Assembly (NCBI GenBank): GCA_951406725.2
Contig: OX597819.1
Span: forward strand, 5,704,001 to 5,768,000
DNA length: 64,000 nt
Origin: Octopus vulgaris
Lineage: Eukaryota
Direction: 5' to 3'
Shown here: one piece after another, positions 32,876 to 41,296 of the stretch
Numbering within the stretch: the stretch's first letter is position 1
How the letters are laid out: each line of letters begins with the position of its first letter
The notes under the pieces: generated by a model
What the model saw: only the letters and a program-made list of their open reading frames with translations
Database searches by the model: none
Told to the model about the DNA's origin: nothing
Made by a program: the position numbers and the translations under genes

Positions 32876-33107
32876 GAAGATCTTAAGAATGCTTCATGTT
32901 AAAGTAAATATAACAAATAATCCAGAACCTTTGTCCGGTACCGGATCGATTCCAAAATCTAATCGGTTTGTGCAGCTCACAAGACAAAACATCCATGAAA
33001 GTGTCATCAGAAACCATTCAGCGATTCTTGAGATATCTTGTTCACGAACAAACAAACAAACACAACTAAAAACAATACCTCCGCCTTAGCGAAGGCGGAG
33101 GTAATAA
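32770..33107 (-). mobile_element. Second copy of the HINE-like family
   Basis: tacctccgccttagcgaaggcggaggtaataa terminus. Body is homologous to 40392-40680 in reverse. Confidence 0.7.
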
Positions 33108-33764
33108 AGAATCATACTTGACTGAAACGCTACCGCCTACTTCTGGATAGTTTATGTCGAAGATGACCTGTATAGAATTGTTTGAAGGTGACCCAGGAAG
33201 TTGCAACCCTGCTTAGAAAGACATAAATTTGCATCCGTTTCCAAGCTTATCTCTCCTTTCAGCAACATGTTAAAATACAACACTTCAAGGTTGCAGTAGT
33301 TAGTTCTCTTTTTTTCTTTTCTTTAAAGTACAAGTTAAATACTAATGAATGTTCAGATAGAAAAGTCAATGGAGAACGATTAAAGTTCATATCGGTAATA
33401 TATTTTCTCTTGAAAAGTGATTCTACTGCTGCTACAAATGGTGATGATAAGAGGAGAGAAGAGAACGAGACGTTCAAAGCAGAAAAATGAGAAACCTTAG
33501 CGCTCTTATAACTTTCTATGTAACATTTAGATCAGAAACATTATCGTAGCTTCTGCTTATCTAGATTTTGAAACTGCAGCAATTATCAACTTATCTACAC
33601 AATACTGTCAATTACATTTAATTGCATAACCCTGTTGATTAACATTCTTGTGCAACTAAATGGATAAAATCGCATGCTAAATAATAAATAAAAACTGCAA
33701 TAAAGTTTCGGCTGTAAGCTATTGTAGCTATGCCACACATAAAATGATTACACTTTTTAAAATT

Positions 33765-33925
33765 CTTTTACGTATTTCAGTCATTCGACTGCAATCATGC
33801 TGGGATACCGCCTCCGAGGGTTTTTTTTTAGTCGAATGGATAGACCTTAGGACTTATTTGTTAAGCCTAGTACCAACGATGATTGGGGGGAAGGACAAAA
33901 CAAAGACACACTCATATACATATAC

Positions 33926-33998
<73 letters not shown>

Positions 33999-34134
33999 TA
34001 CACGACTGGCTTCTTTCAGTTTCCGTCTACCACATCCACTCACAAGGCTTTGGTCAACCCGAAGCTATAGCAGACTTGCCCAAAGTACCACGCAGTGGGA
34101 CTACACGGAAACATGTAATTGGAAAGCAAGCCTC
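33765..34134 (-). mobile_element. SINE family A copy cut in its head by the Tx1 insertion
   Basis: Family A homology runs up to ggaaagcaagc (34121-34131), then switches to the Tx1 3' tail. Confidence 0.78.
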
Positions 34135-36105
34135 TTTATTTCATTAGATTTGCCATAAAGGCGGCACATAGATGAGACGTACAATGACAGACAAGCACAA
34201 AGGGTGAAGAAGCTGCATAATTAAAAATTAAGGTCCGAATGATGAGAGCAGATGAAAATGATACAATTAAAAAAGTATTTAAGTATAATTATTATTGCAA
34301 TATATAATAATTCACGTCAGAAGGAAAGGCATCCAGCTATCTGGGTAGAACCTTTACCCGTTACCATTGACCCCGCTTACCTGGTGTCGGTCACTCTCAA
34401 CTTGCTTACCACAAGCTTCCTTCTTTTCATGAATGTACTTAGCGTCGGGCACCTCTTTTCCAGCCTTATCTTATTTACGAGGTGGTAACTAAAAAAATTT
34501 ACCAACCCCTGGCCAGAGACAAAGGTACCTGTCACTATTCCTCTTACACGCGTCTTCCATACTGTTTCTTTCAGTATGGCTACTATGCAGAAAAACCAAG
34601 CCTTCCTTTCCATGTTAAGGGAGGGAGGCGGCACAATCTTGATGATAGACTCAGCCGATAGCTGTACTCTTCCCATCGATGACAACAGTTGCTCTGTGAA
34701 AACTATCAGTCCCGTTAATTCCAGGCATTCCACGAATACGTGCAAGACGGTTTTACTGTCCTGCCCGCACCTCGGACATGTCGGCGAGACAGCACTTCCG
34801 TACCTTGATAGGTTATCTCGAACAGGTAACACCGCACGGAAGCACTGCCAAGCCAGGGATTTCTGGTAATTATCCAAATACCCCGGCCCGAACGTTCTGA
34901 ACTAATTTTCATCGTTGCCCAGGGTCTTCTCCAAGGCGTCTTCGGACATAAATTCCACTAACCCGCTATAAAAATCCGCGGTAGAACTCCCGTTGACGGC
35001 ATTGCCTGCCCGAGAGAGTAGCTGAAGTGTCTGACGGCACCCCAATTGCCAGTCCCTCAGCCCAGGTCTCTACTTGATCTATGTACCAATGTCCGTTAAA
35101 GGCGTTAACCGCGGAAGGTAAAACCGGACGTGCGGTGACCATACCTGCTCCTTATCCAGGTAAATCCAGAGGTGCCTCAACCTTAACGCGAGTTTTCGCA
35201 TCTTCAGCTAAGGCGTCCCTAGCCCACCCTTTAGCGGTTTCTGGTAGCAGACAGAGCGCTTCACAAGAGGCTCTCCTCCCTTCCACAAAAAGCGGAAAAG
35301 GATTCTCTCCAACTTGTTCATCCACAAATCAGGGCAAGGCACCACGGTCAGATGGTAGGTGATAACTGATGTTATAAACATCTGCACCACCTCCGCCTTC
35401 CCTAGCAAGGATAACGCCCGCCCAGACCAGGTCTGGGTTAGAACAGTCACCTTACTGGTTACCTCTCTCCAATTTTATCCTATCTGGAGGTCTGGGCCAA
35501 ACCAAACCCCAAGCAGCTTAACAGGACCTTCCGTCCAACGCCCCACGAAGTTATTGGACGTCATCAGCTTGCCCCTCCTGGTGCCGAGTTGCAAACCGAC
35601 CGACTTGTCCTTGTTAACTTTTGCTCCTGCCACCGCCTCGTAACTTTTGATAGCCTCTTCCACCAGTGGAAGCTGGCCCTCATCCGCATACACCGTAGCT
35701 CCTCTTCCGCTCCACAGATTATTCGGCGCGCCCCCTAGTGCTTCCAACATCCGCAGCAAAACATACAAAATATGAGACAGGGGAAACTCCTGAGACACTG
35801 AGCGCTCGATCCTGAATGGTTTCGCAAAGAAACCATTCACTTTGACGACAGACTCGATGTCGCTATACAAAGCAGCAATCCTACCGCGGAAGGTCGGGCC
35901 CAGGCCAGCCTTTTCGAGGACCGCCGCCAGGTACCGATGGTCGACCCTATCAAATGCTTTAGACTGGTCTAAATGTACCAGTGCCAACCCCCCGCGCCAG
36001 AAAGCTCCCCTACCTTCTCTAAGGAGTAGCGTATAAAGTGGAGATTGTCGTGGATCGACCTGCCCGGGTTGGCGCAAGCCCCCCCCCCCCCAGTCTATCC
36101 ACGAC
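34135..36105 (-). mobile_element. 5'-truncated, decayed Tx1/L1-clade LINE (RT, CCHC finger, 3' UTR)
   Basis: Motifs LDQSKAFDRVDHRYL, SVSQEFPLS (GVRQGCPLS-like), YADE, KLLGVWFG, LSLLGKA, KGGLG and CPRCGQDSKTVLHVFVEC. Frameshifted. Higher GC than the flanks. Ends ...GAAATAAA. Confidence 0.9.
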
Positions 36106-36547
36106 CCGCGCCAATTTTGGTAATTTTGTGGACTGAGGTCGGTAGAGTACATCAACCCCAGTGCTCAACTGCTACTTATTTTATCGAATTCGGAAGTCAA
36201 TGTCGGCGGAATTTGAGCTCAGAACATAAAGAACCGGAAGATGTACCACAAAGCATTTTGTCCGGCGTGTTAACGATTTTTCTGGCTCACTGGTTTAATA
36301 ATACTAATAATAATCCTTTCTACTAAAGGCAAAAGGCCTGAAATTTTTGAGAAGGGGGCTAGTAGATTATATCGATCCCAGTGTTTCATAGATACTTAAT
36401 TTATCGACCCCGAAAAAATGAAAAGCAAAGTCGATCTCGGCGGAATTTGGACTCAGAACGTAGCGGCAGACGAAATACGGCTACGCATTTCGCCCGGCGT
36501 GCTAACGGTTCTGCCAGCTCGCCGCCTTAATAATAATAATAATAATA

Positions 36548-36590
<43 letters not shown>

Positions 36591-37314
36591 TGATGATGAT
36601 GATGATGATGATGATTCTTTCTACTACAGGTACAAAGCTTGGCTTTTTGGAGGAGGGGACTAGTCGATCACTTCGACCCCAGTGCAAAACTGATACTTAT
36701 TTCATAGACCTCGAAAGGACGAAAAGTGAAATCCACCTGGCGGAATTTGAACTCAGAACGTAAAGACGAACGAAAGCAGCTAAGCATTATGCCCGTCGTG
36801 TTATCGATTCTGCCAGTTCATCGCCCTAACAACAACAACAAAAACAACAACAGTAATAATAATAACCCTTTCTACTATAAGCACAAGGCCTAAAATTTTG
36901 AGGAAAAGGACAAGTCTATTATATTAGCTCCAGTACTCAACAACAACAACAACAACAATAGTTCTTTCTAATTTTGGTGCAAATTCACAAAATTAGAGGA
37001 CTGATGCTGGTACTTTATTTTATCGAACCCTAAAGAATGAAAGGCGAAGTTGATCTGGATGGAATTTGTATATAAAATCGCAAAGTTTGACTTTCTAACG
37101 ATTCTGTCCATAAAAATAATGTTTATATTGCTGACGATTATAACTTGCCAATAATGTTAAAACTAAGGCAACGAGCTGGCAGAATCGTTATCATACCAGG
37201 CAAAATGCTTTGCGGCATTTCGTCCGTCTTTACGTTCTGGGTTCAAATTCCTCTGGGGTCAACTTTGCTTTTTCCTTCTTTCGTGTTCGATGAAATAAGT
37301 ACCAGTTGAGCACT

Positions 37315-37701
37315 GGATGGAAGCATTCCGTCGGTTACGACGATGAGGGTTCCGGTTGATCCGAATCAACGGAACAGCCTGCTCGTGAAATTAACGTGTA
37401 AGTGGCTGGAGCACTACACAGACACGTGCACCCTTAACGTAGTTCTCGGGGATATTCAGCGTGACACAGAGAGTGACAAATCGGCCCCTTGAAATACAGG
37501 TACAACAGAAACAGGAAGTAAGAGTGAGAGAAAGTTGTGGTGAAAGAGTACAGCAGGGATCACCACCATCCCCTGCCGGAGCCTCGTGGAGCTTTAGGTG
37601 TTTTCGCTCAATAAACACTCACAACGCCCAGTCTGGGAATCGAAACCGCGATCCTATGACCGCGAGTCCGCTGCCCTAACCACTGGGCCATTGCGCCTCC
37701 A
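37315..37701 (-). mobile_element. SINE family C with TSD, inserted in a family B SINE
   Basis: TSD cagttgagcact at 37303-37314 and 37702-37713. Confidence 0.9.
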
Positions 37702-39362
37702 CAGTTGAGCACTTGGATCGATGTGATCGACATACCCAAACCACGGAAATTGCTGGCGTTGTAGTGAAATTTGAAACCAGTAAAGTTGTGAACTAAACAC
37801 GATATTTTAGTGACAACTAAAAGTGCTTTCTGTGATAAACCTGATGTCATAAAGTTTGTAACATGAGACGAACTCCTGATCATCCACCGTATTTTAACAT
37901 GTTTGTAATACAGTACAAACATCTTGAATTTGTTAGCTCATAATACCAACAAGTATGTTTGTCTTAAGTTTACTGAACCCCTCCGAAAATATTTTCATAT
38001 TATTGTTATGCCGATACCGACAAAGCTGAAGGTATTTATTTCTTTATATGTTTTGACAAACCCTTTCTAACTTTGCATTGCATATGTTCCTCCCCGTTAG
38101 GGTTTATTTCTACCTATCACATGATATCATTAACCTTTTAATATCAATTTCTCCCCAAGTACAAGACTAATTTCGTAAAGGAAGGATATAATTGATCAAA
38201 ATTTTTTCCAGCATAATTTTGTTATATTATCGTCTCTGAAGGGATGAAATGCAAACTCAGACACGGCAGGATATTAACTCTCTGTGTGTAAAAGAAACAA
38301 ACGAAGAAAAAAAAACGCAACTAAATATTTTTTGAAGCATTTAGTCCAGAAAGCCACAGTTCTTCCATAACACCTTCCTTTAAATAACGATTTTTTTAAT
38401 AGACACAAGGCCATAAATTTCTTGGAAAGATGGAAGTGAAAGGTAAACGCAACATGATTTGAAGTCAAAGCGGAAAGGCCTGTAACTAAATACTACAAGA
38501 TATTTTTCGTTGATGATCTCAGGATTCACCACTATAATAATCATCTAATGAATCATATCAACAATAGTAATTACTGACGTAGGCAGAAATTTGGCCAACT
38601 AAATTTTAAGGAAATAGGGGAAGCTGTTAATTATACAAAAGCCAGTACTTAAGTGCTTAATTTACAGCAACACCCACGGGAATAGCAAAAGGCTAAGTGG
38701 ACATCGGCGAGGTTTGAATTCATAACAACAACAATAATAATGATTTCAAATTTTGGCACAAGGCCAGCAATTTCATGGGAGTGCGTAAGTCGATTACAGC
38801 GATTAGCTCACTGTTTCTGCGGTGCAGAAACAAATCCCCCACCCCCAAATTTCAGGCCTCGTGCCTATAGTAGAAAGGATTATTACAATAAACAGAGGGT
38901 GGTGAACTGGTAGAATCGTTAGCATGCTGAACGAAATGCTAAGCAGCATTTCGCCCGTCGCTACGTTCTGAGTTCAAATTCCAACGAGGTCGACTTTGCT
39001 TTTTATCCTTTCGGGTCGATAAATTAAGTACCAGTGAAAAACACTAGGGTCGATGTAATCGACAAGTCTCCTTCCCCGAAATTTTTTGACCTTGAGCCTA
39101 TGGTAGAAAGGATTGTTACCATACATACAAAAAGACATTGGGAAAGTCTTACAAAACTTTGGTACACTTGCAAATTTTATTTACACCTTACGCTACACTT
39201 ATACGTACACTTCTGCATTTGGCATACACCAGACCTTTCTTTCTTCTTTTTTTTTTGTTTTTATTCAATTCTTTTATATTGCACACACAACAAACTTTCT
39301 TAAATCTCTATATCACATGTGTAATCGAAACCTTATTACCTCCGCCTTCGCTAAGGCGGAGG

Positions 39363-40390
39363 TGTAGGAATGGCTGTGTGGTAAATAGCTTGCTTACCCT
39401 AAAGCTGAGGGAGGGGTGAAACTGTGGCCCCTCCCAGAGCGACGAGAGATGATTTTGTTGTCTTCTTCCAAAAGGGAGGGGCAATTCAGAGCTTCTTAAG
39501 GAAGATAGGGGGCCGGAGGAAGGATACCATGCCCTGGACTTAAGACTTGGATTGGCCTCCGCAGGTGACTACGGAGGTCATATCGGACGTCGACATATTC
39601 AGGGTGATGGACTCCTTTCCGAAGGACCAGTTTAGGTTCGTCTTCTGGGGCCCCGACATGGTGCTGGAGCATAGCCTGCAGGAGGCATACGGCCTGATCA
39701 GGGAGGAGGGATAAAGAGGCTTTAGTGCCTAAATGCTTATTGTTTGTAAGAGGCTCAGTACCTCAATTTCTAATGGACTATTAAGTCCAGTAATTGTAGA
39801 ACTGAGGTAAGAGGTTTCATACCTCGTTTTGTTTTTCGTTTTGAAAAAAAAAAAAGAATGATGTTTTAGAGCAGCAGAAGATCGACGGGCATCTTATACC
39901 TGCTCCCATTTATACCATCCTTTTCATCACTGATCTCATTAATGCTTTTTGTCCAGCCAGCAAGCTACTCCTTCTGTATACGGCCTTCATGGCCAATGAA
40001 ACGAAATAAAGTAGCTTGCTAACCAATCACATGGTTCTGGGTTCAGTCCCACTGCATGGCACCTTGGGCAAGTGTCTTCTACTATAGCCTCGGGCCGACC
40101 AAAGCCTTGTGAGTGGATTTGGTAGACGGAAACTGTAAGAAGCCCGACGTATATATGTATATATATATATATGTGTGCATATATGTTTGTGTGTCTGTTT
40201 GTCCACCCAACATCGCTTGGCAACCGATAGTGGTGTGTTTACGTCCCCGTAACTTAGCGGTTCGGCAAAAGTAATCGATAGAATAAGTACTAGGCTTACA
40301 AAGAATAAGTCCTGGGGTCAATTTGCTCGACTAAAGGCGGTGTCCCAGCATGGCTGCAGTCAAATGACTGAAACAAGTAAAAGAGTAAAA
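39363..40390 (+). mobile_element. SINE family A copy interrupted in its head
   Basis: Head at 39363-39398 and remainder at 40009-40390. Confidence 0.85.
39399..40010 (+). mobile_element. 5'-truncated retro-insertion with a Tx1-like 3' tail, inside a family A SINE head
   Basis: Flanked by an imperfect ~16 bp TSD (aaatagcttgcttacc at 39383-39398, aagtagcttgctaacc at 40009-40024). GC-rich coding-like frame at 39421-39714 with one internal stop. 3' end gccttcatggccaatgaaacgaaataaa. Confidence 0.75.
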
Positions 40391-41296
40391 TAGTCGCGTT
40401 TGTTTGTTGGTCCGTGGACAAGATTTCTCAAGATATGGATTCGGATGACACTTTCAGGGATTTTTGGCCTTGTGACTGGCACGAACTGAGTAGATTTTGG
40501 GATCGATCTGCTATGGGACAAGGATTCTGGTTTATTTTTCCGTTTTTTTTTTACTTAATTTTTGAGAGTGGTCGGGTTCATTTTTAGTATTCTCGTTTGT
40601 GAGAGCAATCGAGTTTATTTCAGATATTCTCATTTTAAAAGTCATCTCCAGGTAATCGTTGAGAGGACGTTGATGTTGCCTTGGCGGATGTTTGCGCTCT
40701 CTGAGTGCTCTTGTTATTAACTTTTATTTCACCTGTATAAATTCTTTTTTAACGCAATTGAGAGTATTCAATCATTTACCTTACCCTTTCTACTATAGAC
40801 ACAAGGTCTAAAGTTTTAGTGGAAGTGGGCTAGTCGATTACATCGACCCCAGGGCTCAACTGGTACTTATTTCGTCGACCTAGAAAGGATAAAAGGCGAA
40901 GATGACCGCGGCGAAATTTGAACCCAGAACGTAATGGGTCGGACAAATTGCCGTTAAGCGTTTTGTCCGACGCGCTAGCGATTCTGCCAGCTTAACAAAA
41001 AATTTTATTTTGTGAGGTCGTTGTGCGTGTATGTGTGCGTGTCTGTGCGTGTGCGTGTGCGCGCGTTTGTGTGTGCGTGTGTGTGTGTGTAGCTAGTCGA
41101 TTACATCAATTTCAGCGCTCAACTGATACTTATTTTATCGACCCTGAAAAGTTTAGAGATAAATCTCTTATATAGACCCAAGGGGCTAGAAATTTAGAGA
41201 AGAAAAAAATCGATGAAATAGTTGTAACCTGTGTAGTAGATATATAAGCAGGTAAATTCAACTATTTGTATTTGACTAGTATTTTATTCCATCGAT

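Follow-up and report, generated by a model that had tools for sequence, protein, structure and literature searches.

A lineage of long interspersed elements (LINEs) that encode an apurinic-type endonuclease (APE), together with short companions that carry only open reading frame 1 (ORF1), is found almost exclusively at one fixed base in the head of a dispersed short interspersed element (SINE) in the genome of Octopus vulgaris. The system is visible in a window of 64,000 nucleotides (assembly GCA_951406725.2, contig OX597819.1, positions 5,704,001 to 5,768,000, forward strand; window positions are counted from its first base), where, in the region from 33,765 to 40,390, two different retroelements end within copies of a SINE that we call SINE A. 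Genome-wide junctions strongly support a real SINE-homing system. We think it quite probable that the autonomous LINE (the driver) and its ORF1-only passengers reach the site by target-primed reverse transcription, following a sequence-specific nick made by the LINE's own endonuclease.

Both window junctions can be read directly. As the original prediction stated, the two 3' ends meet the SINE A head at one identical base, directly after TGGTAA and in the SINE's own orientation; the LINE copy ends in AATAAA at 34135, and a diverged SINE A body runs from 34134. This base lies just 3' of the A box of the SINE A promoter. The second element had been credited with a target site duplication of about 16 bp, and a duplication is present, but it measures 14 bp and reaches 16 only if the AA common to tail and target is included. 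Its body had also been described as different, and it is distinct from the LINE copy; it is not, however, another LINE body but a 5'-truncated ORF1-only element that starts at 39418 and represents the 3' ~600 bases of an older passenger family (full copy at locus L236, 2.07 kb; L numbers denote genome loci). The features of the region are given below (UTR, untranslated region; RT, reverse transcriptase).

33764..34134, minus strand: diverged SINE A body of the older GAAG/TTCC-type subtype, downstream of the LINE 3' junction, head absent (blastn, 80-82% to the intact window copy).
34135..36114, minus strand: 5'-truncated, broken copy of the SINE-targeting APE-RT LINE lineage (81% DNA and 79-85% protein identity to the young intact family; zf-RVT; tree).
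36067-34380, minus strand: ORF2 residues 554-1133 of the window LINE, comprising the C-terminal half of the RT and the zinc finger, followed by a 3' UTR that lacks poly(A) (protein comparison with the young intact family).
34207..34214, minus strand: putative 3'-UTR antisense copy of the target in the window LINE, AGCTTCTT, which fits the older GAAG subtype (motif comparison, locus L031).
34152..34162, minus strand: predicted 3'-terminal stem-loop of the window LINE, common to all families of the system (fold and covariation analysis of tails).
39360..39384, plus strand: SINE A head with an A-box-like motif, the upstream half of the interrupted SINE (sequence, blastn).
39385..39398, plus strand: 5' copy of the 14-bp target duplication (12/14 identical to 40011-40024).
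39399..39417, plus strand: 19-base filler at the 5' junction of the second element, between duplication and element (absent in relatives).
39418..40010, plus strand: second element, a 5'-truncated copy of a 2.07-kb ORF1-only passenger (88% to full-length L236:6783-8848; tblastn to passenger ORF1s, E 1e-13).
39433-39687, plus strand: broken C-terminal part of ORF1 of the second element, followed by a 3' UTR ending in AATAAA (tblastn).
39960..39969, plus strand: 3'-UTR antisense copy of the target in the second element, a 10-base reverse complement of the junction sequence (read directly, locus L001).
39982..39994, plus strand: predicted 3'-terminal stem-loop of the second element (fold and covariation analysis of tails).
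40011..40393, plus strand: SINE A body of the GTAG subtype, the downstream half of the interrupted SINE (88% to the intact window copy; begins with the 14-base 3' copy of the duplication).

The 5' junction of the window LINE has been lost: at 36114 the homology gives way to another repeat, with no SINE A head at that point. A second SINE-like family forms a dense cluster in both orientations at 36115-37300 and 38750-39110, and one of its copies truncates the LINE's 5' end. The filler at 39399-39417 had no match among the fetched genome loci. A short perfect hairpin repeat lies in opposite orientations at 33077-33104 and 39334-39365, with one copy adjoining the interrupted SINE head.

To place these two events in context, junctions were collected across the 2.8-Gb genome (227 contigs). 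A protein search with the window RT piece gave 150 matches, of which the best 30 loci were taken regardless of their flanks; SINE A follows the tail at the identical base in 29 of these 30, and the remaining one runs into a tandem copy. The youngest family has 105 exact 28-base tails in the genome, with GTAG next in 100 of the 100 with flanks among the matches listed, and 98 of the 105 copies were fetched with both ends. GTAG follows the tail in 97 of the 98. Downstream lies a scored SINE A body in 87, a diverged SINE in 1, a stacked relative in 5, and a disrupted body with a SINE head upstream in 2, so that 95 of the 98 occupy a SINE site or a stack built on one; the other 3 are in non-SINE sites. 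A true tRNA gene was not found at any of the 98 junctions. Upstream of all 78 full-length young copies there is either a SINE head (68) or the tail of a relative (10).

The older families to which the window copies belong behave similarly at lower frequency. Relatives of the window LINE's 3' end were at the site in 19 of the best 30 of 42 by script and in 21-22 by eye (5 lacked a scored tail), and relatives of the second element were scored there in 13 of the best 30 of 45. There are 68,385 exact empty target sites (29-mers) in the genome, from which simple arithmetic puts the chance of hitting that base and strand at about 1 in 80,000 per insertion. The junction coincidence (87/98 young copies, 19/30 and 13/30 window relatives) thus exceeds chance, and the genome-wide mapping of tails that had been proposed as a check places the junctions on one base of the SINE head rather than scattering them. 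By Kojima's rule, an element is target specific if one sequence type makes up >20% of its flanks (PMC4494074); here the share is 87 of 98. At least 499 exact sites are occupied, with lineage-type tails on 99 of the first 100 listed (judged by eye), and because so few are occupied relative to the empty ones, the effect on SINE A in the host genome is small. The elements were also detected in assembled contigs from two organisms (eight sequencing runs, contigs only), and neither RNA ends nor presence/absence polymorphism was seen in the contigs of those runs.

The same copies show which partner is the target. Among the 14 youngest, element bodies diverge by 0.34% and the adjacent 115 SINE bases by 6.7%; the SINE flanks are thus about 20-fold more divergent than the bodies, and the SINE must therefore be target and not cargo. 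Body and flank distances are, in addition, uncorrelated over 66 copies (Mantel p 0.56). A composite element moving as a unit, with the SINE halves as its own termini and no targeting at all, would account for the element-derived 5' 14-mer of full-length copies. Such a composite is nevertheless contradicted by the divergence of the flanks, by SINE heads that meet truncated copies at many distinct breakpoints, and by private target variants that are duplicated in L147, L190, and L202. We reject it as having practically no chance of being correct, and for the 3' half it is refuted by the comparison of body and flank divergence. The converse, that SINE A is a passenger of the LINE, was also rejected: the tails are unlike, blastn gave no significant match between SINE A and the 3' ends of the LINE or the passengers, and none of the 151 SINE A tails in the fetched DNA adjoins a SINE A that lacks its head. 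The suggestion of a parasite of a parasite accordingly holds in the sense that SINE A does not look like the LINE's passenger.

SINE A is short (~410 bp), high copy, and dispersed, with a tandem-repeat tail. Its own 18-bp duplication flanks one composite (L165), the sole clear case in 44 composite rows; in many others it is unreadable, lying in (TA)n. A search of Rfam gave no tRNA match to SINE A and only microsatellite-driven matches. On the other hand, a relaxed ARAGORN run called a tRNA-like fold in the head, and global alignment of the head to host tRNA-Lys(TTT)-like copies gave z of about 4-5, with only 6-7 isotypes sampled; these observations hint at a tRNA origin of the head. About half of the best genome tRNA matches (L261-L290) are slightly different dispersed tRNA-Lys(TTT)-like copies, which are perhaps a young tRNA-derived repeat. 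Octopus SINEs named in PMC4824008 and PMC4758252 include OK, OR1, and OR2.

The full-length driver is 5,439 bp long and encodes ORF1, with a CCHC knuckle, and ORF2, with APE, RT, and zinc finger (Pfam Exo_endo_phos, RVT_1, and zf-RVT; zf-CCHC is weak, E 3e-4). It ends in AATAAA with no poly(A). In the copy at L095 the two frames span 467 and 1133 amino acids; among the 78 full-length copies, ORF1 is retained in 14, ORF2 in 9, and both in 2. The best solved relative is human L1 ORF2p (E 5e-67, versus 7e-20 for R2), and among named proteins the closest comes from an argonaut (64% over the RT region). We built an RT tree of 52 rows by a quick method with SH-aLRT support, drawn from sequences other than named Tx1 families and an animal L1 reference. 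The SINE-targeting copies, including the one in the window, form one clade (100), and the driver falls among L1-like rows from animals and plants, separate from an RTE-like outgroup, and with lancelet, sea cucumber, and coral elements (SH-aLRT 90). By its RT, the driver is thus placed in the L1 group. A CCHC knuckle in ORF1 is typical of the Tx1 clade. Named Tx1 references were sought in protein and cluster databases, which yielded only one auto-named protein, 'Transposon TX1 putative 149 kDa', and the driver aligns to this over its full length (26%, E 2e-98). Judging from these comparisons, the driver likely belongs to the Tx1 clade.

The sister of the SINE-targeting clade (support 100; 66% ORF2 identity) is a family whose 3' end lies in (TC)n at 18 of 19 loci, with one locus duplicated and one lacking a tail. 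Copies at L241-L259 (e.g., L242:2940-8360) show that this sister family is young and partly intact, with (TC)n at both ends, resembling Kibi. A third related LINE (L237:5461-8100; 63% ORF2 identity; single copy) has its 3' end in (TATC)n, which is a possible further microsatellite target.

Young driver copies are accompanied, both upstream and downstream, by elements of 1.5-2.25 kb with an ORF1 match and no ORF2 match, representing at least 5 families. These passengers are bounded by the same SINE head and body as the driver and stack in arrays of one family or of several (four near-identical 2-kb units visible at L231; mixed arrays at L225 and L227). Full-length drivers stack as well, and at G000:C9:2664508-2680911 (L099, L187) three stand head to tail in one SINE. 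Passenger ORF1s are only 26-41% identical to that of the driver and sit on long separate branches, so that the passengers do not look like direct deletion derivatives of the co-resident driver; an older origin is probable. Their ORF1s are under purifying selection (dN/dS 0.14-0.25 in 7 pairs). What the passengers share with the driver is a 4-bp stem-loop at the 3' end: in 23 tails chosen as distinct from 58, 90% of cells are paired, there are 8 double changes, and the score was matched by 0 of 500 shuffles. Ages from nearest relatives in 17 pairs point both ways as to whether upstream or downstream members of a stack arrived first, with passenger families thinly sampled. Older ORF1-only elements at L297, L302, L303, and L306 occupy GAAG-type SINE sites and lack the antisense motif; their ORF1 most resembles that of the (TC)n family (36-47%), and they probably represent another independent origin of passengers.

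The insertion ends give some indication of how the site is reached. Truncated young copies (L147, L189, L202, L206) have duplications of 14 bases, and older truncated copies have duplications of 6-14 bases; some truncated copies show small deletions. The 5' copy of the target in full-length insertions comes from the element, since it ends in TAACC in 76 of 77, including 23 of 23 with a TTA-type 3' target. An extra T at this leader occurs in 20 of 31 copies with mismatched targets versus 7 of 42 with matched targets (p 6e-5), and the SINE head is duplicated in L093 and L167. These patterns suggest that the RNA begins inside the duplicated target and sometimes at the start of the SINE.

In the mechanism that we favor, the ORF2 protein (ORF2p) would make its bottom-strand nick at TAA^G(T/A)AG and another, as far as 14 bases beyond, on the top strand. 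With an RNA that starts inside the duplicated target, the end of the complementary DNA could anneal to the overhang, as in the model for R2 elements that carry 28S leaders; such annealing would account for the high share of full-length copies (78 of 98) and for the occurrence of the extra T mainly where target and leader mismatch. Each insertion would leave AA plus the 14-mer at both ends and so regenerate the site, which would be why relatives pile up there. Passengers would borrow the driver's ORF2p through the common stem-loop while their own ORF1 is kept under selection. The transcript probably extends past AATAAA into SINE sequence with which the 3'-UTR antisense motif could pair. From sequence we infer where the nick falls, where the RNA begins and ends, and what the antisense motif does. 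The Tx1L endonuclease is reported to nick its own target almost exclusively (PMC1950540), and 2 of the 3 non-SINE young targets begin GTAGC, in keeping with recognition by the endonuclease. Also in line with reading of the sequence, the GAAG subtype of SINE A is found at 0 of 100 young junctions versus 20 of the first 100 listed empty sites (the latter counted by eye).

Specificity might alternatively reside in the RNA. Older families occupy GAAG sites and have GAAG-type leaders. The antisense motif follows the target base: 116 junctions, most of them from one family, comprise 85 with A in the motif and GTAG in the target, 9 with T and GAAG, 0 discordant, and 22 lacking a motif. Across families, we scored 40 further junctions (20 GAAG and 20 GTAG, chosen for tail diversity from 100 listed occupied sites). 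All 6 T motifs were in GAAG, the A motifs were in GTAG in 11 cases and GAAG in 5 (one a doubtful call), and 18 junctions had no scored motif (Fisher p 0.012). The T and A versions recur in several separate branches, shuffling the young 3' UTR yields a 9-mer match to the target in 0.15% of cases, and the predicted fold has the motif paired with read-through sequence. The motif therefore tracks target subtype in several branches, though neither exactly nor as a requirement. All of this could mean that the 8- to 10-base motif is a main determinant of the SINE subtype chosen, either by pairing with the top strand of the target or by setting the RNA 3' end through pairing with the read-through SINE; specificity would then follow the SINE through compensatory change in the RNA and not in the protein. 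Yet A-motif elements do enter GAAG sites, several passenger families that lack the motif use the site, the young tree shows no clear clustering by target subtype (p 0.07), and the covariation could reflect no more than selection on RNA folding or 3'-end processing. We regard a leading role of the motif as doubtful, and nicking by a sequence-specific ORF2p as the better account.

The A box suggests another route. Mismatches in the A-box region amount to 1.6% in used targets (n = 56) versus 7.4-8.3% in intact SINEs (n = 37-42), and the same holds for 9 of the 10 truncated copies with a head. This pattern fits upstream recognition either by the protein or by a tether to the RNA polymerase III (Pol III) machinery, with which TRE5-A is targeted near tRNA genes; the endonuclease would then read only a short local motif, and the cut does fall directly after the A-box-like motif. 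However, insertion occurs at one base within the target and not at a distance (a contrast drawn from PMC3706591), the non-SINE targets carry the same motif, the sister lineage uses (TC)n, which has no Pol III promoter, and none of the 98 young junctions involves a true tRNA gene. A tether is therefore unlikely to be what directs these elements, and sequence-specific nicking remains preferred.

Several observations weigh against that preference or limit it. The nick position and the RNA ends are deduced from contig sequence only, and the better-kept A box of used targets would also be expected from a protein tether to Pol III factors. Neither a head nor a tail lies upstream of 8 of the 20 young copies that are not full length. 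Extra-T leaders cluster weakly on the young tree (p 0.015), and some may be inherited and not made at insertion. The antisense motif is missing from some passenger families. Finally, 15 of the 30 best copies of the second element's older passenger family end outside a SINE body, mostly at GTA-like motifs. This last result is what one would expect if only a short motif (about AA^GTAG) were read, with SINE A used as its commonest carrier. A 6-base motif is estimated to occur more than 1 million times in 2.8 Gb, against ~1e5 SINE heads, and yet 95 of 98 young copies are in the SINE site or a stack; a short motif as the sole determinant is thus unlikely for the young family, and we consider it very improbable as a general explanation. 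Keeping to target-primed reverse transcription after a sequence-specific nick, we speculate that an L1-group community may carry its specificity partly in its RNA, with the SINE target at the 5' end, an antisense copy in the 3' UTR, and probably downstream target at the 3' end, so that aiming would be renewed from the host SINE in each cycle. A shift from GAAG to GTAG would have been followed by parallel compensatory substitutions in the driver and several passengers, after an earlier switch from (TC)n. We offer this wider picture tentatively and think it more apt to be wrong than right.

Elsewhere in the window, a third repeat family occurs at 37316-37700 and again at 41296. Two adjacent long stop-free frames of 581 and 383 amino acids on the minus strand (50376-53257) have no Pfam match, and kilobases of short-period satellite at 57400-64000 produce many spurious long frames.

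Known Tx1 targets include piggyBac, Mariner, Harbinger, and long terminal repeat (LTR) elements, U2, U5, 5S, tRNA spacers, and microsatellites (PMC4494074, PMC5340908, PMC4640811, PMC3706591, PMC3747384, PMC1950540). Full-text searches of the literature turned up no LINE specific for a SINE head; Repbase Reports, Dfam notes, and subscription papers were outside reach and may hold one. A curated octopus annotation describes 13 recently active L1-Tx1 families, with the words 'target' and 'nested' absent from its main text (PMC13282606), and 'Tx1' does not appear in the accessible text of PMC9115989. Transposon-targeting Tx1 elements are already known, and what seems new here is the SINE as target, which adds a SINE promoter region to the targets of site-specific APE retrotransposons. 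The system also offers an unusually rich natural record of specificity change, with a (TC)n sister lineage, element families that match dated SINE subtypes, and a candidate RNA motif whose sequence changes along with the target. Grafting of loops between APE endonucleases failed to transfer specificity (PMC1950540); two intact ORF2 proteins that are 66% identical and have different targets make APE retargeting directly testable. A short two-ORF element with a one-base target and mostly full-length copies is, moreover, of interest as a gene-insertion tool.

The closest parallels are Tx1L in Tx1D of Xenopus and the crocodilian Tx1-Mar, Tx1-8_Crp, Tx1-4_AMi, and Tx1-9_AMi, in which an APE-encoding L1-group LINE likewise lands in another mobile element (PMC4494074, PMC1950540). 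Short passengers also share the site in these systems and stack in tandem around a duplication (SINEU-3). The reported targets of these elements are piggyBac, Mariner, Harbinger, and LTR elements and not SINEs, whereas the octopus lineage uses the Pol III promoter region of a SINE that offers ~68,000 exact empty sites. Its passengers, unlike those described for Tx1L and the crocodilian elements, encode ORF1. HAL1 (half-L1) is similar to our passengers in being non-autonomous and ORF1 only, with several independent origins (PMC5753468), but the octopus passengers differ from it in being site specific, in forming mixed arrays, and in having an ORF1 only distantly related to that of the driver.

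Mutsu (5S rRNA), Keno (U2), and Dewa (tRNA-Leu spacer) resemble the driver in their ~5.5-kb length, two ORFs, and fixed site 20-25 bases into a small-RNA-type unit (PMC5340908, PMC4640811, PMC3706591), and Mutsu subfamilies track target variants as the families here track SINE subtypes. Their reported targets are host genes, however, and Mutsu has a 3' poly(A) stretch that the driver lacks. Kibi and Koshi are Tx1 elements specific for (TC)n and (TTC)n, respectively (PMC4494074); the sister lineage shares the (TC)n habit by target only, a likeness to Kibi that could be convergence. R2 with 28S leaders also carries its target at the RNA 5' end, so that 5' junctions are uniform, variants are propagated, and upstream target is occasionally duplicated, as we saw in L093 and L167 (PMC3774820). 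R2 does so with a restriction-like endonuclease, one ORF, and a ribozyme, and the octopus driver with an APE and two ORFs.

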